This document shows, piece by piece, positions 87 to 15,186 of a DNA stretch of 15,278 nt; within the stretch, counting starts at the first letter, position 1, and the number at the start of each line of letters is the position of its first letter. The translations under genes were made by a program, and so were the position numbers. The stretch covers positions 3,705 to 18,982 of the forward strand of contig CAYVSA010000038.1 in NCBI GenBank assembly GCA_964454175.1, written 5' to 3'. This DNA comes from an uncultured Pseudomonadota bacterium. GTDB lineage: Bacteria > BMS3Abin14. The notes beneath the pieces are model-generated. The model had not been told where the DNA came from and ran no database searches. It saw only the letters and a list, made by a program, of their open reading frames with translations.

Positions 87-110
87 AGTACGCCCTCAGT
101 CCGGCGTACT
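87..110. other. 8-bp inverted repeat (hairpin) spanning the stop codon of the response regulator
   Basis: AGTACGCC (87-94) / GGCGTACT (103-110) with an 8-nt loop containing the minus-strand TGA (96-98). No U-tract on the minus strand. Confidence 0.5.
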
Positions 111-671
111 TTGGCCCAGCACCATCTGAATGCGCTCGAACGCGACGGATGGGTCGAGGCTTTTATCCAGGAACCCTGCGGCGCCCATATTCTTAACTAT
201 CTGAATATCGTCATGGCTGTCGTGTACACCCGTCATTACAATAACGGGTGGATAGGGCTTCCCAGAATTCTTGAGGGTTTCCAGGACACCGAAGCCTGAT
301 ACGCGCGGCATCTGGAGGTCCAGAAGTATGAGCTGATACTTATCGGGAGCGGCGTTGAAAAACTCCAGGGCTTCCTGGCCGTCTTCAGCAGTTTTCACCC
401 TGAATCCGTGGTTGATCAGGAGGTCGGACATCAAGGCTCTGAAGAATTCGGTGTCATCTGCAAGGAGAATGTATCGATCGTCAGCAGGGGCCGCGACAGG
501 CTGTGCAGCCGCTGCGGTCTCCTTCATCCTGCCGTAATTTCTCCACCCTTCCGGCAGGTTCACGGAGATCTTGGACTGACATCCGCTGCACTGGATACGA
601 AATCCCTGGTTCGGTATCCTGACTGGGTCAAATACATACTCTTTTGAGCAAAGTGGGCATATAAGTCGCAT
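96..671 (-). CDS. Response regulator with N-terminal zinc-ribbon (MJ0042-like) domain and C-terminal receiver domain
   Basis: MRLICPLC...IQCSGC (two CxxC), Ala/Pro linker, then REC motifs LADD, LILLDLQMP (phospho-Asp), VMTG, FLDKS. Start 671 preferred over 701 because it begins directly at the zinc ribbon and lies downstream of the predicted promoter (711-682). Confidence 0.88.
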   Translation of the reverse strand: MRLICPLCSKEYVFDPVRIPNQGFRIQCSGCQSKISVNLPEGWRNYGRMKETAAAAQPVAAPADDRYILLADDTEFFRALMSDLLINHGFRVKTAEDGQEALEFFNAAPDKYQLILLDLQMPRVSGFGVLETLKNSGKPYPPVIVMTGVHDSHDDIQIVKNMGAAGFLDKSLDPSVAFERIQMVLGQSTPD

Positions 672-2823: not shown

Positions 2824-3897
2824 ATGAGAAAAGAGTCGCTGCAGTTCCTCAAAGATCTTGCCGAGGCACCCGGTCCTTCTGGATTTGAAGGGCCGGTTCA
2901 GGAAGTATGGGTCAAAAGGACCAAGCCCTTCGCCGACGAGGTGCGGGTGGACGTTCACGGGAATGCCATAGCATCCCTGAATCCCAAAGGTGGGCCCAGA
3001 GTCATGATAGCAGGTCACTGCGATGAGATCGGGTTCATGGTTAAGTACGTATCTGACGATGGCTTTATCTCTTTTTCGCCCATCGGAGGTATAGATATTC
3101 ATCTTGTACCTGCCAGAAGGGTGATAATTCACACCAGAGCCGGAAAGGTGCCGGGAGTCATCGGGAGGAAACCGATCCATCTGATGGAGCCGGCTGCCAG
3201 GACAAATCAGAAGCTTGATTGGCACAGCCAGTGGATCGACATCGGCGCGAAAGACCGCAAAGAGGCTGAAAAAATGGTGTCTTTAGGAGACCCAATTACA
3301 TATCCTGATGGCTTCTGGCCCCTGGCAGGCGACAGGGTTGCCGGACGCGGATTCGACGACAAGATGGGCAGCTTTGTGGTTTCAGAGGTGGTTCGTCTTC
3401 TTTCTAAAAAAAATATCAGGGCTTCCCTGTTCGCCGTCTCAACCGTCCAGGAAGAGTTAGGTTTAAGAGGAGCGACCACGAGTGCTTACGGGATCGACCC
3501 TGACGTGGGGATAGCTGTTGACGTTACTTTCTGTTCCGACCATCCAGAGGTGGACAAAAAGCAGCTGGGTGAGATAGGCTTGGGGAAGGGCCCCGTAATT
3601 GCCAGAGGGGCCAATATCAACCCCAGGGTATTCGAGGGTCTTCTCAAGGCTGCCAGGAAAATGAAGATCGATGTCCAGGTCGAGCCGTCTCCCCGTGCGA
3701 CCGGTACCGATGCCAACGTCATGCAGGTAACCCGAGGCGGTGTCGCCGCAGCCCTGGTCAGCGTTCCCAACAGGTACATGCATACGCCTGTTGAGGTTGT
3801 ATCTCTGCAGGATCTTGAGGAAACTGCCAGTCTGCTTGCGGCATACATCGAGTCTCTGAAGCCTGGCGATGACTTTACACCCTTTACTGTAAAGTGA
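2824..3897 (+). CDS. M42 family (TET-like) metallo-aminopeptidase
   Basis: GPSGFE, GHCDEIG, FDDKMG, QEELGLRGA, AVDVT, GTDA, RYMHTPVE. Start moved to ATG 2824 (AAGGAG SD at 2813-2818). Confidence 0.95.
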   Translation: MRKESLQFLKDLAEAPGPSGFEGPVQEVWVKRTKPFADEVRVDVHGNAIASLNPKGGPRVMIAGHCDEIGFMVKYVSDDGFISFSPIGGIDIHLVPARRVIIHTRAGKVPGVIGRKPIHLMEPAARTNQKLDWHSQWIDIGAKDRKEAEKMVSLGDPITYPDGFWPLAGDRVAGRGFDDKMGSFVVSEVVRLLSKKNIRASLFAVSTVQEELGLRGATTSAYGIDPDVGIAVDVTFCSDHPEVDKKQLGEIGLGKGPVIARGANINPRVFEGLLKAARKMKIDVQVEPSPRATGTDANVMQVTRGGVAAALVSVPNRYMHTPVEVVSLQDLEETASLLAAYIESLKPGDDFTPFTVK

Positions 3898-5207: not shown

Positions 5208-6398
5208 ATGCAGCTAGCAAGAAGAGTAACTCAGATCAAACCATCACCGACTCTTGCCATTACCGCAAAAGCGAAGCAGATGAAGGCAGAGGGGCTCGAT
5301 GTGGTTGGATTCGGTGCAGGAGAACCTGATTTTGACACTCCTGAAAATATCAAGCAGGCGGCAATAAAATCCCTTAACGAGGGATTTACCAAATACACAC
5401 CGGTGCCTGGTACCAACGAAGCTAAAGACGCCATCATTGCCAAGCTCAAGAGGGACCAGGGCCTGGACTACGAAAGGTCCCAGGTGGTTATTTCCTGTGG
5501 AGCCAAGCATACGCTCTACAACATCGCCCAGGCTCTTTTCCAGGAGGGCGACGAAGTCCTGATACCTTCGCCCTACTGGGTATCCTATCCTGCCCAGGTG
5601 ATCCTGGCCGGCGCCGAACCTGTGATCGTTCAGACCTCACAGGAAAACGGTTTTACAGCTACAGTCAGCGAACTCGAGAATGCCTGCACTTCAAAGACAA
5701 AAGCCCTGATCTTGAACAGCCCCAGCAACCCGACGGGAGCAGGTTATACAAGGGGCCAGATGGAATCCATCGCCGAGTTCGCCAAAAGCAAGGGCCTGCT
5801 GGTCATTTCGGATGAGATATACGAGAAGCTGGTTTACGGGGATTTTGAATTCACCAGCATTGCCCAGCTGCCAGGGATGCAGGAGAGGACTGTTCTCGTC
5901 AACGGGCTGTCCAAAGCGTACTCCATGACCGGTTGGAGGCTCGGATACGCTGCCGGTTCAACGGAACTGGTGGCCGCAATGACAAAGATCCAGAGTCAGA
6001 GTACTTCAAACCCAACCTCGTTTGCCATGCCGGCGCTTGCCGAGGCCCTCAACGGTCCACAGGATTCGGTTGATGCCATGCTCGCCGAGTTTGACAAACG
6101 AAGAAAATATATTGTTGAGCGTCTCAACAGGATGGATGGAGTCAACTGCTTTGACCCGGTCGGGGCTTTTTACGTATTTCCCAATTTCGGTGAACTTCAC
6201 AAGAGGTCTTTTTCCGGCAGGAAAATCGGCGACTCGACAGGTTTTGCAGACTACCTTCTCAGTGAGGCTAAAGTAGCTGTTGTCCCGGGAGTGGCATTCG
6301 GAGACGATGAATTCGCAAGGCTTTCCTTTGCAACTTCAATGGAGAATATCGAAAAGGGGATTGACCGTATCGAAGCCGCGGTAGAAAGGTTGGAGTAG
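5208..6398 (+). CDS. aspC: PLP-dependent class I aminotransferase (aspartate aminotransferase-like)
   Basis: GEPDFDTP, NSPSNPTG, SDEIY, SKAYSMTGWRLGY (PLP Lys), VAVVPGVAFG, RLSFA; SD GGGGG upstream. Substrate is inferred. Confidence 0.88.
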   Translation: MQLARRVTQIKPSPTLAITAKAKQMKAEGLDVVGFGAGEPDFDTPENIKQAAIKSLNEGFTKYTPVPGTNEAKDAIIAKLKRDQGLDYERSQVVISCGAKHTLYNIAQALFQEGDEVLIPSPYWVSYPAQVILAGAEPVIVQTSQENGFTATVSELENACTSKTKALILNSPSNPTGAGYTRGQMESIAEFAKSKGLLVISDEIYEKLVYGDFEFTSIAQLPGMQERTVLVNGLSKAYSMTGWRLGYAAGSTELVAAMTKIQSQSTSNPTSFAMPALAEALNGPQDSVDAMLAEFDKRRKYIVERLNRMDGVNCFDPVGAFYVFPNFGELHKRSFSGRKIGDSTGFADYLLSEAKVAVVPGVAFGDDEFARLSFATSMENIEKGIDRIEAAVERLE

Positions 6399-6400
6399 TT

Positions 6401-7177
6401 ATGAAAATAGTGAGATTCGCGGCAGGAGAAGGCAAAGACGACTCCACCCTGTGGGGAGTTATTGAAGGCGAATCGGTAACTGCTCTTTCAGGTTCCCCTT
6501 TTGGGGGGATCGAGACCACTGACATGTCTTTTCCCATCAGCAAGGTCCGTCTTCTCAGCCCTGTCATCCCCGGAAAGATAGTAGCCATCGGGTACAATTA
6601 CATCGGCCACATCGAGGAAATGGGTGTGGAAATCCCCAAAGAGCCGCTCATTTTCCTGAAAGCGTCCAGTGCCGTGATAGGAGCCGGGGATGAGATAGTC
6701 AGGCCCCCGGAATCCGAAAGGGTGGATTTTGAAGGTGAGTTGGCTGTTGTCATTGGAACGCCCTGCAGGAGAGTTGCTTCGGCTGATGCAGACGAAGTTG
6801 TCTTTGGATACACGATCCTCAACGATGTGACAGCAAGAGATCTGCAGAGGAAGGACGTGCAGTTCTCTCGGGGCAAGAGTTTTGACACATTCAGCCCCAT
6901 CGGTCCCTGGATCGAGACTGATTTTGACCCCTCAGCCTCCAGCCTGTCTTCATCGGTCAACGGTGAGATCAGGCAGGAAGCAGCCATATCATCCATGGTG
7001 TTCTCACCGGCAGATCTTGTGTCATACGTCAGCCAGTCCATGACCCTCCACCCGGGAGATATAATAGCAACCGGTACCCCTTCCGGCGTGGGGCCCCTCG
7101 TGGAAGGCGACGAGGTCAGTATCTCGGTAGACGGCATCGGCGTTTTGACCAATCCGGTGCGGAACGAAACCCCTTGA
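6401..7177 (+). CDS. Fumarylacetoacetate hydrolase (FAH) family protein
   Basis: KIVAIGYNY..H, IFLK, DFEGEL, GYTILNDVTARD, KSFDTF.PIGP, PGDIIATGTPSGVG; GGAG SD at 6392-6395. Confidence 0.93.
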   Translation: MKIVRFAAGEGKDDSTLWGVIEGESVTALSGSPFGGIETTDMSFPISKVRLLSPVIPGKIVAIGYNYIGHIEEMGVEIPKEPLIFLKASSAVIGAGDEIVRPPESERVDFEGELAVVIGTPCRRVASADADEVVFGYTILNDVTARDLQRKDVQFSRGKSFDTFSPIGPWIETDFDPSASSLSSSVNGEIRQEAAISSMVFSPADLVSYVSQSMTLHPGDIIATGTPSGVGPLVEGDEVSISVDGIGVLTNPVRNETP

Positions 7178-8202
7178 GTGAAAAACTTCAGGGGTCACCG
7201 GGTTTGCAGCCCTGTTCAGTCCCCCTGGCCCTGACAATGGGAGATCCCTCCGGGATCGGCCCTGAGATCATATCCCTGGCCATGGAAAGGGAGGATCTCG
7301 GACAGTGTTGTATGGTGATCGGAGATCTTGCCCGACTGCGTATCGGTGCCAGGAAGGCCGGGAGCCGTGTGAAGTACAGGTCTGCCAGTGATCCTGAGGC
7401 TGCTTCCGGATACGATGGTGAGGTCCCGGTGATGGATCTGAAGAATGTTCCTGAAAACCTCAGATTCGGAAACCTTGCCGGGGAAGCCGGGGAAGCTGCC
7501 TATCAGAGTCTCGTGACTGCTATAGATCTCGCAGTTGATAAGAGGGTAGCCGGTATCGTTACAGCCCCCCTGAACAAGGAATCACTACACATGGCAGGGC
7601 ACAACTATCCCGGACATACCGAGATCCTTGCCGAGAGGACCGGCGCCTCCGATTATGTCATGATGCTGGTCGCAGGAAGTATGAGGGCCCTTCACGTTAC
7701 CAGCCACATCAGGTTTTCCGAAGTCCCCGAATTTATTACTGTAGAAAGGATACTGCGAGTACTCGAACTGGGCCGGGAGGCCCTGGTAAGGCTTGGTGTG
7801 GAAAAACCCAGGTTCGGGGTGGCGGGGCTGAATCCCCATGCAGGGGAAAGCGGCATTTTCGGCGACGAGGAGACGGAGATTATAGTACCGGCAGTGGAAA
7901 AAGCCTCAGAGCTGGGTATTGACGTCACCGGCCCGGTACCTCCCGATATCGTATTTCTCAGGATGAACAGGGGTGTGTATGATGCTGTTGTTGCCATGTA
8001 CCACGATCAGGGGCACATACCACTTAAGCTGTTTGCTTTCGAGTCCGGTGTCAATGTCACCCTCGGCCTTCCCATAATCAGAACATCTGTTGATCACGGC
8101 ACAGCTTTTGACATCGCGGGAAAGGGTCTTGCAGACCCAGGAAGTCTTGTGGAGGCCATCGAACTTGCCATCTCCCTTTCTGAAGATAGAGTGTCGGAAT
8201 GA
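7174..8202 (+). CDS. pdxA: PdxA-family dehydrogenase (PdxA2 / 4-phospho-sugar-acid-like subtype)
   Basis: MGDPSGIGPEI, TAPLNK, PGHTE, GLNPHAGE, AMYHDQG, RTSVDHGTAFDIAG. TTG start overlaps the upstream TGA; exact start uncertain. Confidence 0.92.
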   Translation: MSEKLQGSPGLQPCSVPLALTMGDPSGIGPEIISLAMEREDLGQCCMVIGDLARLRIGARKAGSRVKYRSASDPEAASGYDGEVPVMDLKNVPENLRFGNLAGEAGEAAYQSLVTAIDLAVDKRVAGIVTAPLNKESLHMAGHNYPGHTEILAERTGASDYVMMLVAGSMRALHVTSHIRFSEVPEFITVERILRVLELGREALVRLGVEKPRFGVAGLNPHAGESGIFGDEETEIIVPAVEKASELGIDVTGPVPPDIVFLRMNRGVYDAVVAMYHDQGHIPLKLFAFESGVNVTLGLPIIRTSVDHGTAFDIAGKGLADPGSLVEAIELAISLSEDRVSE

Positions 8203-9452
8203 AACTGTGTGGGCCAGTAAAGAAAAGAGTTAAGGACACAGCGTTCCTGGCTGGATTTTTGGCCCTTTTTTTCCTGACGACCGTTGTATTTCCGGGCGGC
8301 TCAAGCGCCCAGGAGGAAGGAGAAGAAGGCCTGACGATCGGGGTGGTCCTGCCGCTTTCCGGTGCCAATTCGGTCTTTGGGCGTATTCAGAAGAACTCAA
8401 TGATAATGGCTGCTGAGAAGATCAACGCTGAAGGAGGGATAAATGGTCGCCAACTCATACTTGATATCAGAAACTCGGGTAATCGATCAAAGGCGGCTAA
8501 GGATATTGCCAGGAGCTTCATCGAGAAAAAGGGCTATGCGCTGATAGTCGGCGGATTCAGTTCCAGTTCAACGAGGTCCATTGGAGCTTACGCCGAGAAG
8601 ATGGTTGTACCGTATCTGGCGATCACGGGGTCCTCGGATGCTATTACACAAAACGGCTATCGTTATGTTTTCAGGCTGAATCCTCCCATAGGCAGGTACA
8701 GTTCTGGCCTTGTGGAACTTATCTCCGAGAGGGTCAAGCCGGCGAAGATTGCTGTGGTTTATGAGAAGAGCAGCTTCGGAAAGGGAAATGCATCTGCGAT
8801 CCTCGCTGCCGCAACTGCCTCTGGCTGGGATGTGGTCGTAAATTACGGATTCACCAGCGGCGGTCTCGGATTGGAATCTCTTCTGGAGGCTATTTCCGAC
8901 AGGGAGCCGGATGTACTTTACATATCCTGTTATTCGAAAGACGCAGGGAGAATACTCACCGAACTCGCCGAGAGGAAAATATCTGTGGGTCTTGTAGCAG
9001 GGTCCTCTGAACTGGGAAAAGAGACTTTCGCAGCATCGGCAGGCCCATACGGAGAAAATGCCCTGGTTTCAGTCATCTGGGCGCCAGGACTTCCTTATCA
9101 GGGTATGGCTGAGTACGTCAGTGAGTTTTCGAACAGATTCGGCAAGGTACCCGATTACCATGGCGCCGAGGCCTATGCATCTATTCAGGTTGCAGCAAAT
9201 GCCCTCAGAAAGGTGTCCTTTGTTGAGCCTGCGGCCGTGACCGAGGCTCTAGCCAGTACCGAGATGGATACTGTTTTCGGCTATATCTCCTTCGTAGAGT
9301 CCGAAGGCTATAATAATCAAAACATGCCGCCGACCTATGTAGTCCAGTGGCAGAATAGTAAAAAGCCTGTTGTCTGGCCCCCCGATTTTGCAGAATCTGA
9401 TCTAATCCTGCCAGGAGACAAAGCTGCACTGGAAACGCTGTTGGGTGATTAA
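8199..9452 (+). CDS. Branched-chain amino acid (LivJ/LivK-type) ABC transporter substrate-binding protein
   Basis: Signal peptide ending SSA/QEE; TIGVVLPLSG, INAEGGINGRQL, GGFSS, YVFRL, VQWQN, VVWP typical of Peripla_BP_6. ATGA overlap with pdxA. Confidence 0.88.
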   Translation: MKLCGPVKKRVKDTAFLAGFLALFFLTTVVFPGGSSAQEEGEEGLTIGVVLPLSGANSVFGRIQKNSMIMAAEKINAEGGINGRQLILDIRNSGNRSKAAKDIARSFIEKKGYALIVGGFSSSSTRSIGAYAEKMVVPYLAITGSSDAITQNGYRYVFRLNPPIGRYSSGLVELISERVKPAKIAVVYEKSSFGKGNASAILAAATASGWDVVVNYGFTSGGLGLESLLEAISDREPDVLYISCYSKDAGRILTELAERKISVGLVAGSSELGKETFAASAGPYGENALVSVIWAPGLPYQGMAEYVSEFSNRFGKVPDYHGAEAYASIQVAANALRKVSFVEPAAVTEALASTEMDTVFGYISFVESEGYNNQNMPPTYVVQWQNSKKPVVWPPDFAESDLILPGDKAALETLLGD

Positions 9453-9591: not shown

Positions 9592-9699
9592 ATCCCAGTC
9601 TGGAACCGCTTTATTACATTATGAAAGAACGTCCCACTGCCCTGGGGGAATTAGTCATTTTACCTTATTGACCAACAATTGCCGGAGAAACACCCTGTC

Positions 9700-12276
9700 A
9701 TGAAAAAAACTCGAAAAGATACAAATACGCCCCTGCTCGATCACATCGGACTGGAGCTGAGAGAGAAGAACAGAGGCCTTATTGGGGTGGGCAGCAAGAT
9801 ACCCATCAAGGATTCCTCGGCCCTCAGCCTTCTTTACACTCCGGGTGTGGCCGGACCTTGCCTGGAGATAGAAAAAGATCCAATACGATCCTATGAACTC
9901 ACCTGCAGGGGCAACACCGTTGCAGTAGTGAGTGACGGCTCGGCAGTGTACGGGTTGGGCAGCACCGGGCCGTACTCGGCGCTCGCAATGCTGGAAGGAC
10001 GAAGTGTTTTTTTTAAGACTTTCGCCGGCGTCGACGCAATGCCGATCTCCCTTGACACACAGGACTGTGACGAGATCGTGAATATATGTCTCAGGCTGTC
10101 GACCAGCTTCGGGGGGATCGTTCTGGAGGATATAGCCGCACCCAAATGCTTCACCCTTGAGAGGAACCTGAAAAAGGCAACCAGGATCCCCGTTTTCCAC
10201 AACGATCAGCACGGCGCGGCTATTGCGGTCCTTGCAGCTCTAATTAATGCCCTGAAGGTCGTGGAAAAGAAAATTGACAAGGTGAAGATCATTATCAACG
10301 GGGCCGGAGCTGGTGGTATCGGTACAGCCAGGCTCCTGCTGGCCGCCGGCGCCAGGGACGTCGTCCTCTGTGATCGGTACGGCTCCATCTACCGTTACAG
10401 ACTCCACCCCATGAACTGGGCCAAATCGGATATCGCCCTTCAGACCAACCGTCCTCGAAAGAGCGGTACCCTCGCAGAAATGATGGACGGCGCAGACGTT
10501 TTCATTGGTCTGTCCGCTCCGGGCATCGTATCCCCCGATATGGTTAAGAGCATGAACAAGGGTGCCATAGTATTTGCCATGGCAAACCCGATCCCCGAGA
10601 TCATGCCCAATGAGGCACTCAAGGCGGGAGCTGCTGTTGTTGGATCCGGCAGGTCCGATTTTCCTAACGAGATCAACTCAGCCTACGTTGCACCCGGTCT
10701 TTACAGGGGGCTGCTTGACGTGCGTGCGCCGAGGATAACTGACCGGATGTACCTTGCCGCAGCTGAGGTCGTTGCCGGAATGGTGAAGGAAGAGCAGCTC
10801 AATCCATCCAACATAGTACCCCCCATCTTCGACTTCCGGATCGCTTCAAAGCTGGCTCGGGTTGTGGCAGAGGAAGCCATTGACTCCGGGGATGCAAGGG
10901 TAAATGTATCCCCTCTCCAGATCGAGGAGAAAACGCAGCGTATTGTATATGAGGATGAATACACTGTCCTTCCCAAACCGGTACCCGGCAAGAAAAAAAT
11001 GGACCTTTTCGAAGAGTCCGTGGAACTTCATAACAAGTATCAGGGTGTCCTGGAGGTAAAGGTAAAAGTTCCGGTACGGGACGAGTACCTTCTGAATCGC
11101 GTTTATCTGCCCCCGGAGGCCACAGAAGCCAGTATCCTGATCTCTAAAGAACCTGAAAAAGTCTACGACCTGACCTGCAAGGGGAACCTTGTTGCGATAG
11201 TCAGCGACGGGAGCGCGGTCCTGGGCCTCGGAAACATAGGGCCACGCGCTGCATTGCCTGTTATGGAGGGCAAGGCCATCTTGTTCAAGACTTTCGCCGG
11301 AGTGGAAGCCTTCCCCATTTGTGTCTGCACCCAGGATGTGGACGAGATCGTAGACCTGGTTAAAGCGATCTCCCCGACTTTTGGCGGTGTGAACCTTGAG
11401 GATATTTCTTCGCCGCGCTGTTTTGAAATAGAAGAGCGACTCAAGGCCGAGACCGACATCCCGGTATTTCACGACGATCAGCATGGTACGGCCGTGGTGG
11501 TTCTTGGCGGCATGATGAATGCCCTGAAAATAGTCGGCAAGAAACTGTCTGACGTTAATATAGTCATGAACGGTGCCGGTGCTGCATCGATCGCAACTGC
11601 CAAGCTCCTCATGACCGCCGGGGCGCAGAACATCACACTGTGCGATATTAACGGCACGATATTCAAAGGCAGGAAAAAGGGCATGAACCGTGTCCTCGAG
11701 GAAATGGCGCTAATAACAAACGCGGACAGGTTAAAGGGGGGTACAGCCGACGCAATGAAGGGTGCGGATGTCTTTATGGGCCTTTCAGCTCCCAACACGG
11801 TTACCATGGAGATGGTTAAGAGCATGGCAAAAGATCCGATAGTGTTCGCTATGGCAAATCCCGTTCCGGAGATCATGCCCGAGGAAGCTGCAGCAGGCGG
11901 CGCTGCAGTCGTGGCTACAGGCAGATCGGATTTCAGGAACCAGGTGAACAATTCAATGGCCTTCCCGGGGATCTTCAGGGGGGCATTGGACGTGAGGGCC
12001 AGGAACATAAACGACAGGATGAAAATAGCTGCCGCAGAGGCTATCGCAGGGTACGTCGATGACACAAAACTCGAGCCGAACTACATAATACCAAGCACGA
12101 TGGATTTCAAAATACCTCCCCTGGTTGCCGCTGCCGTAGCAAAGTCTGCGATGGAAACGGGTGAGGCCAAGATCACAGTGTCTCCCGATGAGGTTGCTGA
12201 AAAAACTCTTGAGTACCTCTATGAGGGCCATATGAAGTACATTGTCGGCAGCATCAACAACGAAGAAAAAAGCTGA
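9700..12276 (+). CDS. Tandem-duplicated NAD(P)-dependent malic enzyme (two fused minimal malic-enzyme units)
   Basis: Every malic-enzyme motif occurs twice, about 424 aa apart: VSDGSAV.GLG, FKTFAGV, LEDI..P.CF, FH.DQHG, NGAGA, VFAMANP.PEIMP, GRSDF.N, RG.LDVRA. No PTA domain, so not MaeB. Start is ATG 9700 or TTG 9679. Confidence 0.95.
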   Translation: MKKTRKDTNTPLLDHIGLELREKNRGLIGVGSKIPIKDSSALSLLYTPGVAGPCLEIEKDPIRSYELTCRGNTVAVVSDGSAVYGLGSTGPYSALAMLEGRSVFFKTFAGVDAMPISLDTQDCDEIVNICLRLSTSFGGIVLEDIAAPKCFTLERNLKKATRIPVFHNDQHGAAIAVLAALINALKVVEKKIDKVKIIINGAGAGGIGTARLLLAAGARDVVLCDRYGSIYRYRLHPMNWAKSDIALQTNRPRKSGTLAEMMDGADVFIGLSAPGIVSPDMVKSMNKGAIVFAMANPIPEIMPNEALKAGAAVVGSGRSDFPNEINSAYVAPGLYRGLLDVRAPRITDRMYLAAAEVVAGMVKEEQLNPSNIVPPIFDFRIASKLARVVAEEAIDSGDARVNVSPLQIEEKTQRIVYEDEYTVLPKPVPGKKKMDLFEESVELHNKYQGVLEVKVKVPVRDEYLLNRVYLPPEATEASILISKEPEKVYDLTCKGNLVAIVSDGSAVLGLGNIGPRAALPVMEGKAILFKTFAGVEAFPICVCTQDVDEIVDLVKAISPTFGGVNLEDISSPRCFEIEERLKAETDIPVFHDDQHGTAVVVLGGMMNALKIVGKKLSDVNIVMNGAGAASIATAKLLMTAGAQNITLCDINGTIFKGRKKGMNRVLEEMALITNADRLKGGTADAMKGADVFMGLSAPNTVTMEMVKSMAKDPIVFAMANPVPEIMPEEAAAGGAAVVATGRSDFRNQVNNSMAFPGIFRGALDVRARNINDRMKIAAAEAIAGYVDDTKLEPNYIIPSTMDFKIPPLVAAAVAKSAMETGEAKITVSPDEVAEKTLEYLYEGHMKYIVGSINNEEKS

Positions 12277-12323: not shown

Positions 12324-13766
12324 ATGGAAATCAGACCGCTGCGCGAAAAAAGCCGTAAAAAGATCAGGGAAATAGTCGGTCCAGATTACTGCTCCGACAG
12401 GACAGAGGACCTGTTCCTCTATGCCTACGACGCCATGAACCGCCGTTACCTCCCGGACATGGTCGCACACCCGGGTGGTCCTGATGAGATCTCCCGCATG
12501 ATGAAACTCGCAAACACCGATGGTTTCGCGGTGGTGCCGAGAGGTGCGGGAACGGGTATGACGGGTGGTTCACTGGCTGTGAGCGGTGGACTTATTCTCT
12601 GTACCGATCGAATGAATGAGATCCTTACGATGGATGCCGGCAACATGACTGCCTGGGCCGAGTCCGGAGCCACTAATGGCAGCCTTCAGGCCGAGGCCGG
12701 CAAGGCGGGCCTCTTTTTCCCTCCGGACCCATCCAGCATGCATATATCAACCCTCGGCGGGAACGCGGCTGAAAACGCGGGCGGTCACAGGGCCGTAAAG
12801 TATGGCGTTACCAGGGACTGGATCATGGCCCTGGAGGTGGTGCTGCCCACAGGTGAAGTGATCAAAACAGGTTCTGCCGCCATTAAAAGCGTGACCGGCT
12901 ACGATCTCACACGGCTCATGGTGGGAAGTGAGGGAACCCTGGGGATAATTACAAAGCTTTTGTGCCGTCTGCTTCCGAAGCCCGAGGCTGTGAGGACGAT
13001 GATGGCCGTTTTCTCCGGGTTGGAGGCTGCCTCGGCCACTGTTGCAGGAATAATGTCGAGCCGGATCGTACCATCCACCCTGGAGTTCATGGATTCAGCG
13101 GCAATAAACTGCGTTGAGGACTACATGCAGGCCGGACTTCCCACCGATGCAGCGGCCCTCCTCCTGATAGAAGTAGACGGCGACGCTGTCCACGCAGATC
13201 ACCAGGCATCCGTTATTGAAAAGGTCTGCGAGGAGTCGGGTGCACTTTACGTCAAGAGGGCGGGTGATGAAGGGGAAAGAGAAGCGCTGTGGAAGGCCCG
13301 GCGTTCCCTTTCTCCGGCTATAATGAAGATCAGGCCGCTCAAGTTAAATGAAGACGTGGCGGTGCCGCGGATGAAGATACCTGAATTGATAGTGGGTGTG
13401 GAGAAGATAGCAGGAGAACGGGGTATTAACATCGTTAATTTCGGGCATGCAGGCGATGGCAACGTACATGTCAACATCCTGGTAGATCCTGAAGACAGTG
13501 ACGAAATGACCCAGGCAGAAAGGGCAGTGGAGGACCTGTTCGCCCTGGTTGTAAGCCTTGGTGGATCACTTTCAGGAGAACACGGTATCGGTATCGCCAA
13601 AGCCGCGTACATGGGCATGGAGCTTGACTCTGGCTCTATCGGTGTTATGAAGAAAATAAAGGGGGCGCTTGACCCGAACAACGTGTTAAACCCCCACAAG
13701 ACCTTCGACTTCGAGGCTTCCTTAAAGGACAGGGAGCTTGTGAGGACGTATGAAAAGAGAAAATAA
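12324..13766 (+). CDS. glcD: FAD-linked 2-hydroxy-acid dehydrogenase subunit (GlcD / D-lactate dehydrogenase-like)
   Basis: PRGAGTG, FPPDPSS, GGNAAENAGG, GSEGTLGIIT, EDVAVP, GHAGDGNVH, SGEHGIG, DPNNVLNP. Confidence 0.88.
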   Translation: MEIRPLREKSRKKIREIVGPDYCSDRTEDLFLYAYDAMNRRYLPDMVAHPGGPDEISRMMKLANTDGFAVVPRGAGTGMTGGSLAVSGGLILCTDRMNEILTMDAGNMTAWAESGATNGSLQAEAGKAGLFFPPDPSSMHISTLGGNAAENAGGHRAVKYGVTRDWIMALEVVLPTGEVIKTGSAAIKSVTGYDLTRLMVGSEGTLGIITKLLCRLLPKPEAVRTMMAVFSGLEAASATVAGIMSSRIVPSTLEFMDSAAINCVEDYMQAGLPTDAAALLLIEVDGDAVHADHQASVIEKVCEESGALYVKRAGDEGEREALWKARRSLSPAIMKIRPLKLNEDVAVPRMKIPELIVGVEKIAGERGINIVNFGHAGDGNVHVNILVDPEDSDEMTQAERAVEDLFALVVSLGGSLSGEHGIGIAKAAYMGMELDSGSIGVMKKIKGALDPNNVLNPHKTFDFEASLKDRELVRTYEKRK

Positions 13767-15063
13767 GGGAAAGTCGATATCACTGGAAGGGTTTTCCTCC
13801 TGCGTAAAGTGCGGAACATGCCACACTGTGTGTCCTGTCTTCTCAACGGTGCCGGCAGAGTCCCACTCGGCAAGGGGCAAGATGGCCCTGATAGAGGCCG
13901 CTGCCGATGGCAGCCTGGCCGAGTCAGACAGGTTCCGCGATTACCTGGAGCTGTGCCTTCTCTGCGGCGCCTGCCAGGAGGCGTGCCCCAACCTGGTCCC
14001 AACAGTACCGATCATGCTCGAGGCAAGGAGAAATGCAGCCGGCAAGGTCGGGATAAAAAGCGGCAAGGGTTTTATCCTCAAGCACATACTGGCCGCTGCC
14101 GGCAGGTTCAGGTTCGCTATGAAAACGGGCCATGCCCTGCAGTGGCTCATGTTTAAAAAAATCCCGGAGAACAGAGGGATCCGCAGGCGCCTGCCGCTTC
14201 CCGCCGTACACAGCGACAGAACGCTTCCACGGGTGGCTGACAGGTTCTTTACCGAATCCTTCCGGGGTACCGTTCGGGAAGGCACCGGTCCGAAGGTAGG
14301 CATCTTTTCAGGATGCATTGTGGAATATTTCTATCCGGAGATAGGCAGGAACATGGTTGATATCCTGGGGGACATGGACGTGACAGTTATAGTGCCATCA
14401 GATCAGACCTGCTGCGGTATGCCTGCCCTGGCGGGGGGAGCAATGGACATCGTCAGGGAACTGGCGGTAAAGAACCTTGAGGAATTCGAAAAGAGCGAAG
14501 TGGATTACATTGTCACTGGATGCGCTACGTGCGGGAGCAACCTGAAGGGAAACTACCAGCAGATACTGGAAGAAGCCGGCGTCGAGCCCGTCCGGGCCGA
14601 AGCCTTTGTCTCGAAAATGAGGGACATAAATGAATTGTTGACCGAGCTTGGGAAACCCGAGCCGTCTGCGGACAGGGTGATTTCGGAACACTCGGGCATG
14701 TTGAAAGTCACCTACCACCACCCATGCCACCTTGGAAGATCCCAGGGGATAACGGATGAGCCAGTGAGGATCATAGAGTCCACACCCGGTGTCCAGTATG
14801 TGACTATGGAAGACGCCCAGACCTGCTGCGGTATGGGAGGCTCCTTCAGCATCGAGCATTACGATATATCCCTAATGATCAATGACCGCAAGGTCAGGAT
14901 GATCGAAAGCTCGAAGGCCGACGCTGTGGTGACGTCATGTCCCGCGTGCATCATGCATATAAGGGACGGCCTGGTGCGAAACGGGTTGGGCCACATCGAG
15001 GTCCTGCATGTCGTGGAACTCATGAAAAGGCAGGAAAAGGAAAAACTCCCACAAAGCGCCTGA
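13750..15063 (+). CDS. glcF: Fe-S subunit of 2-hydroxy-acid dehydrogenase (GlcF-like; 2x[4Fe-4S] plus two CCG domains)
   Basis: CVKCGTCHTVCP, CLLCGACQEACP, QTCCGMP..GCATC, YHHPCHL, TCCGMGG, TSCPAC; overlaps glcD by 17 nt. Confidence 0.88.
   Translation: MKRENKGKSISLEGFSSCVKCGTCHTVCPVFSTVPAESHSARGKMALIEAAADGSLAESDRFRDYLELCLLCGACQEACPNLVPTVPIMLEARRNAAGKVGIKSGKGFILKHILAAAGRFRFAMKTGHALQWLMFKKIPENRGIRRRLPLPAVHSDRTLPRVADRFFTESFRGTVREGTGPKVGIFSGCIVEYFYPEIGRNMVDILGDMDVTVIVPSDQTCCGMPALAGGAMDIVRELAVKNLEEFEKSEVDYIVTGCATCGSNLKGNYQQILEEAGVEPVRAEAFVSKMRDINELLTELGKPEPSADRVISEHSGMLKVTYHHPCHLGRSQGITDEPVRIIESTPGVQYVTMEDAQTCCGMGGSFSIEHYDISLMINDRKVRMIESSKADAVVTSCPACIMHIRDGLVRNGLGHIEVLHVVELMKRQEKEKLPQSA

Positions 15064-15109: not shown

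Positions 15110-15186
<77 letters not shown>

Follow-up and report, generated by a model that had tools for sequence, protein, structure and literature searches.

The small-type prokaryotic malic enzymes (MEs) closest to the protein described here, namely the enzyme of Ca. Phytoplasma AYWB (5cee), Pyrococcus horikoshii PH1275 (1ww8/2dvm), Thermotoga maritima TM0542 (1vl6) and Entamoeba histolytica EhME (3nv9), are homodimers of ~40-kDa chains with two equivalent active sites. A gene on a 15,278-nucleotide stretch of DNA from an uncultured Pseudomonadota bacterium (GenBank assembly GCA_964454175.1, contig CAYVSA010000038.1, forward-strand positions 3,705 to 18,982; the whole stretch is called the window here, and coordinates refer to it) encodes a protein that resembles these enzymes in fold, motifs and entangled composite site, and differs from them in that two ME units lie in one chain with one full-residue site. 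On the basis of sequence comparison and predicted structures, this tandem ME is probably a single-chain pseudo-heterodimer of the small-type, NAD(P)-dependent, oxaloacetate-decarboxylating class.

Small MEs form obligate entangled dimers, in which an N-terminal arm of ~45 residues brings the catalytic Tyr beside the Lys and Asp of the partner. An earlier reading of the window from its sequence alone (the sequence-only reading) took such cross-donation of the Tyr as its premise, and the premise holds for MaeB and EhME. In MaeB, a swapped helix of the opposing monomer supplies the catalytic Y52, and D174 coordinates K107 (PMC7902834, Harding et al. 2021). In EhME, the triad is Y65/K120/D193, with K120 NZ 2.8 A from Y65 OH across monomers, and a 48-residue entangled segment lies between 45-GK-46 and 90-GNF-92 (PMC11944484). 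The MaeB numbering (Y52, K107, E149, D174, GAGASA 207-212, D233, R242 and K250) is nearly equal to that of the N-terminal half (N-half) of the tandem ME, and the EhME landmarks are matched in the N-half by G38-S-K40, Y53 and G78-N-T80.

MaeB of E. coli and Bdellovibrio is also like the tandem ME in that an ME unit is fused to a domain from an enzyme that lost catalysis. Unlike MaeB, the tandem ME is without PTA, and its inert module is a second ME unit that would also supply a catalytic residue. Half-dead enzymes with a comparable logic include eukaryotic phosphofructokinase, the 100-kDa hexokinase I and the plant NAD-ME alpha/beta heteromers, in which duplication was followed by the retention of one non-catalytic copy for regulation or assembly, and in which the live half possesses an entire active site. 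Unlike the dead half of phosphofructokinase or hexokinase I, the dead ME half would still give an essential catalytic residue, and neither half of the tandem ME should work alone.

The sequence-only reading did not recognise the architecture as characterised, and the literature likewise yielded no description of a tandem, fused or duplicated ME in full-text sources, a coverage that leaves supplements and subscription journals aside, so that a prior description is possible. Nor is a tandem ME described in the passages of PMC7902834, PMC11944484 and PMC12704298 (in the last of these the word 'tandem' occurs 0 times). The ME family is known, as is the concept of a tandem enzyme with one dead half; an ME that is entangled within a single chain and whose dead half donates a catalytic residue appears to be undescribed.

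Two malic enzyme units in one frame

The open reading frame spans 9679..12276 on the + strand and encodes 865 aa if read from TTG 9679, from which all residues are numbered here, or 858 aa if read from ATG 9700. The GGAGA that lies 11 nt ahead of ATG 9700 makes a start there likely, and by the sequence this ATG is most likely the translation start, in agreement with the coordinates of the sequence-only reading. The database copy of the protein, P0001, has 858 aa and is 100% identical to the window protein. The features of the gene are as follows.

9700..12276, + strand: tandem ME gene (from the open reading frame, its translation, Pfam and P0001)
9684..9688, + strand: GGAGA, likely ribosome-binding site, as inferred by reading the sequence
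9736..10959, + strand: N-half ME unit, aa 20-427, whole fold with a degenerate catalytic core
9790..9918, + strand: swapped ('entangled') arm of the N-half, aa 38-80, bounded by G38-S-K40 and G78-N-T80, equivalent of the EhME segment 45-GK-46 to 90-GNF-92; large-ME alignments start at 38-42
9835..9852, + strand: YTPGVA, the canonical Tyr motif, whose Y53 is the proposed catalytic residue of the single live site
9994..10002, + strand: N-half Lys motif altered to EGR (R108)
10195..10215, + strand: N-half FHNDQHG, triad Asp replaced (N175, equivalent of MaeB D174) and D176 retained
10300..10425, + strand: N-half dinucleotide-binding stretch with GAGAGG (aa 208-213), D232, R241, W247 and K249
10954..11004, + strand: inter-unit linker, aa 426-442, of low model confidence (pLDDT blocks 74 and 60)
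11005..12228, + strand: C-terminal (C-half) ME unit, aa 443-850, intact catalytic core
11104..11121, + strand: drifted C-half Tyr motif YLPPEA (Y476)
11266..11274, + strand: C-half EGK (K532), catalytic Lys
11392..11406, + strand: C-half NLEDI (E574, D575)
11467..11487, + strand: C-half FHDDQHG (D599, D600)
11854..11862, + strand: C-half ANP (N727)
11938..11952, + strand: C-half NQVNN (N757, N758)

Further N-half motifs in the translation are VLEDI (E150/D151), ANP, NEINS (S334) and YGLGSTG, and a Rossmann GxGxxG motif is present in both halves, as GAGAGG in the N-half and GAGAAS in the C-half. Every motif listed in the sequence-only reading is present in the translation at the residues and nucleotides given there. 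Rfam and promoter/terminator scans returned nothing relevant to the tandem ME gene.

Pfam finds the malic (PF00390) and Malic_M (PF03949) families in two stretches each, as the sequence-only reading had expected, with E-values of 2.4e-43 and 1.8e-38. The scores of 148.5 bits for malic (cut-off 23.1) and 132.8 bits for Malic_M (cut-off 23.5) identify the domains of a small-type ME. The halves align with each other with 205/401 identities (51%) at E 2e-142 and an offset of ~424, which bears out the proposal of two full ME units 424 aa apart. The C-half matches 5cee at E 3.8e-124 and carries the other small-type hallmarks, the acidic NLEDI and HDDQH motifs and the substrate/nicotinamide Asn residues in ANP and NQVNN. 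Assignment to the hybrid MaeB class is not supported, given that Pfam shows no PTA family and that PRK12861 scores 673.2 against a cut-off of 1178. The large-type (MaeA/eukaryotic) class, defined by a chain of ~550-600 aa, a cis YTPTV and a tetramerisation domain, is not indicated either, with a score of 193 for NCBIfam PRK13529 against a cut-off of 326.

The eight core catalytic residues are distributed unequally in the window protein, with 5/8 in the N-half and 8/8 in the C-half. The Tyr/Lys/Asp triad is complete only as a composite, with Y53 from the N arm and K532 and D599 from the C core; at the second site, the N core has R108 and N175 in place of the Lys and Asp. In the proposed mechanism, two protomers fused by a linker of ~17 residues would have degenerated in complementary ways. 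The live site would be formed by the N-half arm (Y53, YTPGV) and the C-half core, namely K532, D599, E574/D575/D600, N727, N757/N758 and the Rossmann fold. The reciprocal site, with Y476 (YLPPEA) from the C arm and R108, N175 and S334 from the N core, would be catalytically dead, and the dead N-half would serve as a scaffold and possibly as a nucleotide or ligand sensor too. The gene plausibly arose by duplication and fusion, with a degeneration-complementation ratchet thereafter, in which drift of the C arm would have freed the N core from selection for catalysis and left the N arm and the C core indispensable.

An assembly artefact or chimeric fusion can be excluded. Of the 16 species genomes of the window's phylum, including the window's own, 14 carry the tandem gene with its two units in one frame, as do at least 249 database proteins. 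The fusion is therefore genuine, a point on which the sequence-only reading had left room for an artefact.

Complementary asymmetry across the family

Conservation was followed in a family set of 121 sequences, the query and 120 relatives from a word-indexed protein search (at least 120 relatives were found), the relatives being full length, about 835-880 aa, and 50-86% identical. Where the sources name these proteins, the name goes no further than 'NADP-dependent malic enzyme' or the like. Named sources include NC10/Methylomirabilis, Nitrospinae, Nitrospirae, Desulfobaccales, Brocadiales and Armatimonadetes, and the tandem layout is widespread in uncultured bacteria.

The N-half Tyr motif is YTPGV[AG] in 121/121 of this set, as is Y53 itself, and the C-half Tyr motif, which takes the form YLPPxA and variants, is canonical in 0/121. 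For the core residues the situation is reversed. In the C-half, EGK and HDDQH are each found in 121/121, the acidic motif is NLEDI in 120 and NLEDV in 1, the Asn motif is NQVNN in 113 and NQINN in 7 with one gap, and N727 is N in 121/121 (top-residue frequency 1.00). In the N-half, the Lys motif is EGK in 57, EGR in 30 and another variant in 34, the acidic and Asn motifs are variable, and outside the window's clade only a few sequences have N at position 303, the equivalent of N727. All eight core catalytic residues occur in 0/121 N-halves, with at most 6/8, and in 120/121 C-halves, as compared to a full core in 91/105 and a Tyr motif in 85/105 single-unit ME representatives, and the asymmetry is therefore beyond chance.

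A wider census, which includes every protein fetched in this analysis with two near-full ME units (n=249), gives the same result. The canonical Tyr is restricted to unit 1 and the full eight-residue core to unit 2 in 248/249, such that the complementary losses proposed from the window protein, with N arm and C core retained and C arm and N core drifted, extend to nearly every two-unit relative. When the halves are compared position by position, it is the catalytic sites that are invariant in the C-half yet vary in the N-half. The opposite pattern, invariance in the N-half with variation in the C-half, is shown by V57 of the Tyr motif among others, and G56 is fixed in the N-half where P479 is equally fixed in the C-half.

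Within the family set, 113 sequences have Y at C-half position 476, 5 have C, 2 have V and 1 has F. This distribution has a direct bearing on a reading in which the C-half is self-sufficient, with a C-C dimer that swaps its Y476 arms and an N-half added on as a regulatory pseudoenzyme domain, with a function like that of PTA in MaeB. The conservation of Y476 in most relatives would fit this arrangement, as would the precedent of ME domains with appended sensor domains (PMC7902834). The C-half Tyr motif is nonetheless non-canonical in 249/249 two-unit proteins, position 476 is C, V or F in 8/121, and a canonical motif is found in 0/34 members of a shorter family described below. YTPGV of the N-half stays invariant even in proteins that keep little else of that half, and the predictions put the C arm on the N core. 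A self-sufficient C-half is thus considered highly improbable.

The N-core lesions vary from one clade to another. Across the 35 sequences of the window's clade, R108 is found in 35/35, N175 in 32/35, D176 in 33/35, N303 in 35/35 and S334 in 35/35. Position 108 is K in all 83 sequences of two other groups compared; a second large clade (41 sequences) has EGK, FHNHAH, AVP and NQLDI, and smaller groups show other combinations. As judged from these sequences, the identity of the lesions is clade-specific and the asymmetry itself is general. The conservation of R108, N175, S334 and YLPPEA, which the sequence-only reading had proposed as a check, was upheld in part, in that the non-canonical C-half Tyr motif and the asymmetry are family-wide, and the conservation of R108, N175 and S334 is confined to the window's clade.

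These lesions also bear on whether both sites could work, with an N core that uses R108 and N175 together with Y476 to catalyse either the reaction of the live site or one related to it, for example a malolactic-type reaction or the decarboxylation of oxaloacetate. The N core of the window's clade does retain E150, D151, D176, N303 and the Rossmann motif, and 113/121 sequences have Y476. Of the three triad residues at that site, however, two are replaced (K to R and D to N), the full residue set is found in 0/121 N-halves, the lesions are not the same from clade to clade, and the N core is unrecognisable in the shorter family. Activity at both sites is accordingly given very little credence, and a single live composite site is preferred.

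Trees were generated with FastTree and IQ-TREE (quick), the IQ-TREE run leaving out both units of P0131 and P0122 (four rows). The N-halves fall in one clade, composed of 19 N-halves and one N-half-like protein of 407 aa, with SH-aLRT 100. The branching of the N subtree is mirrored in the C subtree, the pattern that a single old fusion and later co-divergence would produce. Random decay of the N-half, which the sequence-only reading had named as a competing outcome, is ruled out by the conservation of the N-half and by the monophyly of the N-halves.

A natural test of the composite-site reading is offered by shorter relatives. The N-half was searched against 1.84 billion cluster representatives, and ME units were mapped with hidden Markov models (HMMs) built from the family alignment. 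In the shorter relatives, the first 130-150 residues of an ME unit are followed by a stretch unmatched by the HMMs and then by a full ME unit. The N remnant consists of the arm and part of the first domain, and the HMM finds no Rossmann part in it. A search with one such protein, P0133, found 34 shorter-family proteins of 643-957 aa. An N-terminal Y[TS]PGV is present in 32/34, the two exceptions being a protein that is truncated at its N-terminus and one with a 230-residue N-terminal extension. The C core is intact in 33/34, and the C-unit Tyr motif is canonical in 0/34, the listed rows being without Tyr at the aligned position. Given that the C-unit is without a canonical motif, the only candidate catalytic Tyr sits in the N-terminal remnant. 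Read from its sequences, the shorter family is a natural deletion series, in which evolution would have carried out the model of the sequence-only reading. In the trees, one group of shorter forms clusters with the tandem C-halves and another lies apart, such that the shorter forms may have had a single origin or several.

Some of the observations weigh against the composite-site reading. Tyr persists at position 476 in 113/121, although a fully dead site would have no need of it. P0037, P0076, P0083 and P0113 retain K and DD in the N core, and to judge by these residues the four proteins may have some residual N-core activity. P0122 (860 aa), the sole exception among the 249 two-unit proteins, shows degeneration of both its units. 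The mean top-residue frequency in the window's clade is 0.857 for the N-half versus 0.840 for the C-half, and the N-half is the more conserved half in 7/8 related genomes. Since the conservation of the N-half matches that of the C-half, the donation of an arm is insufficient as its sole explanation.

Other variants were encountered in the searches. P0122 is without Tyr in either arm, with SAP and NPFQN in its C-unit, and could be a pseudoenzyme throughout or have acquired a new function. In P0131 (848 aa) the order is reversed, such that the first unit has an intact core and no Tyr and the second has YTPGV and a dead core, with EGL, no LED or DD, and GDGAIV. The search found no close relatives of P0131 beyond its own cluster (4 members, one contig); by its sequence it could be an independent mirror-image split, and it is taken as a lead that falls short of evidence for convergence. 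The searches also brought up single-unit ME-like proteins whose cores are degenerate, of which P0147 (407 aa, N-half-like), P0207 and P0220 (470 aa) keep the Tyr motif and P0171, P0195 and P0252 are without it. Each may be one partner in an unfused donor/acceptor heterodimer, or else a fragment. P0364 (957 aa), in the shorter family, has an extra N-terminal extension of ~230 residues with a match to PF02197 (RIIa-type dimerisation/docking). A generic ME peptide-pattern search of genome contigs gave mostly single-unit MEs.

Predicted packing and the pocket of the degenerate half

An AlphaFold2 model of the window protein, generated from an 88-row alignment, has a mean pLDDT of 92.3 and a pTM of 0.91, with low confidence only at the termini and at linker 426-442. 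In VIA-align comparisons, small MEs superpose on model residues 440-853, arm included, with 5cee giving Z 43.2 and rmsd 1.2 A over 387 aligned residues. The large MEs, which have their Tyr in cis, align differently. Of 31 large-ME rows, 18 span the model from 38-42 to 850-851 with ~346-390 residues aligned, as for 1pj4_A (Z 29.8, rmsd 2.7 A, 385 aligned, chain 97..559), 12 cover the N-half alone and 1 covers the C-half alone. The starting point at 38-42 is the start of the entangled segment, and the end point is the end of the C-half. This suggests that the N arm and the C core together mimic one large-ME chain, with the limitation that the alignments give only the first and last aligned residues, so that 'arm plus core' is a reading of ranges and counts. 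In the model of the shorter form P0133 (pLDDT 91.0, pTM 0.91), 31/31 large-ME rows span residues 23-30 to 709-727.

Prediction of the N-half and C-half as two separate chains gives an ipSAE of 0.91 (runs 0.91, 0.90 and 0.91), with 0.00 for the best of 3 controls, a mark reached by 58/80 solved complexes and 2/110 mismatched pairs. At least 96% of the contacts are shared between runs, with partner pLDDT of at least 90. The predicted interface includes N 49-65 (with Y53), N 71-80 and C 530-535 (with K532), and the low-error pairs connect C 523-527 to N 61, 64 and 75 and, mirrored, C 484-499 to N 99-103. Entangled, arm-swapped pairing is therefore seen in prediction, where it may reflect likeness to solved homodimeric MEs; both predictions may echo those structures, and passing the two-chain mark indicates likeness and not binding, a caution that counts on the side of the objections above. 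Within these limits, the models and the two-chain run support the placement of the N-half arm on the C-half Lys helix that the sequence-only reading had anticipated.

The same composite site could be assembled between chains, in head-to-tail dimers or filaments. Sequence conservation cannot separate intra-chain from inter-chain pairing, and the two-chain prediction pairs the halves as separate chains, both of which leave room for this arrangement. The single-chain model is, on the other hand, confident as one body (pTM 0.91), and the linker, measured between aa 424 and 445, is 17-21 residues long in 118/121 of the family set, a tight length that fits a geometric constraint within one chain. 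Pairing between chains is thus thought unlikely. From the architecture, the near-universal residue pattern and the predicted packing, we infer that the halves pair within one chain and that the catalytic consequences follow the division into a live and a dead site.

The dinucleotide pocket of the N-half is also conserved. The NADP determinants of MaeB are D233, R242 and K250 (PMC7902834). Their N-half equivalents D232, R241 and K249 are each found in 121/121, W247 is found in 120/121, and G208 and G210 are invariant. The 'RK' pair is present in 248/249 N-halves versus 197/249 C-halves, and K673 in the C-half is M or L in 25/35 of the window's clade. Given the invariance of the NADP-type residues, binding of an NADP(H)-type dinucleotide may well have survived in the dead half, and the live half of the window's clade may have a different cofactor preference.

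Whether such binding has a role is a separate question. That the dead half senses a ligand or nucleotide is put forward tentatively, and somewhat more doubtful still is the specific version in which the dead N-half is a dedicated NADP(H)-type sensor, making the protein a one-chain redox-sensing ME unlike MaeB with its acetyl-CoA-sensing PTA. In such a sensor, the reciprocal entangled arms would pass the occupancy of the dead pocket directly to the live site. Alternatively, the N-half core might have no ligand function and be a scaffold for folding and dimerisation that was fixed by a neutral ratchet, an explanation that competes with sensing only and leaves the composite site as it is. The differences in N-core lesions by clade (EGR/FHNDQH/ANP/NEINS vs EGK/FHNHAH/AVP/NQLDI, and others) point towards a scaffold. 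So does the shorter family, in which the C core is intact and no N-half Rossmann domain is recognisable by HMM; a recognisable domain of this type is therefore dispensable for the basic design, and this tells against sensing. The scaffold explanation is less at ease with D232, R241, K249, G208 and G210, which are invariant in a half that does no catalysis, with the variation of 'RK' in the catalytic half (197/249), and with an N-half as conserved as the C-half in the window's clade. A pure scaffold is given a little less than an even chance.

The locus and its genomic setting

The tandem ME gene is found among genes whose order, from the aminotransferase to the CCG/Fe-S gene, is conserved across genera of the family. 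The neighbouring features, assigned by Pfam except for the tRNA, are as follows.

5208-6398: aminotransferase, upstream
6401-7177: FAH-family protein, upstream
7174-8202: PdxA-family protein, upstream
8199-9452: periplasmic binding protein, upstream
12324-13766, + strand: FAD-linked oxidase, downstream
13750-15063, + strand: CCG/4Fe-4S protein, downstream
15110-15186, + strand: tRNA-Met (anticodon CAT), just after the CCG/Fe-S gene

The oxidase and CCG/Fe-S pair lies directly downstream in 5/6 relatives with downstream sequence, and it is probably co-transcribed with the tandem ME and not part of the enzyme. Given that the organisms that share the gene order are close kin, synteny says little about function; the locus may be a node of 2-hydroxyacid, pyruvate and C4-acid metabolism. 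In one genome of the phylum (L100, G005:C1:1585000-1604000), the C-half match ends after ~305 residues in an 808-aa frame and no oxidase/Fe-S pair lies behind it, a difference that may be due to truncation, rearrangement or an assembly problem. In another genome, G001, which is of the same family and reported to be 100% complete, there is no N-half match at E <= 1e-40, no family-model search having been made.

No other small-type ME was found in the window's genome. The same genome does encode a canonical large-type ME, outside the window, as a 585-aa open reading frame on the minus strand (L003, 1447-3204, G000:C19) with the motifs YTPTVG, VGKLSLY, WEDF, FNDDIQG, LSNPT and GQGNNVYIFPG. Therefore, the tandem protein is not the only ME of the organism.

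MEs are central enzymes that have been much engineered, and their prokaryotic forms are still poorly understood. If the reading given here is true, the tandem ME is a natural single-chain entangled dimer in which composite sites have been split into 'donor' and 'acceptor' halves, and it is a testable case of degeneration-complementation inside one polypeptide. Nature would then display an erosion series, from the full tandem to the arm-only remnant and possibly to a reversed order. The protein would offer a monomeric ME scaffold for engineering and a way to study the folding of entangled dimers, and its dead but strictly conserved NADP-type pocket is a candidate for a new allosteric mode. For the annotation of the family, the name 'NADP-dependent malic enzyme' would hide the fact that half of each chain is non-catalytic.

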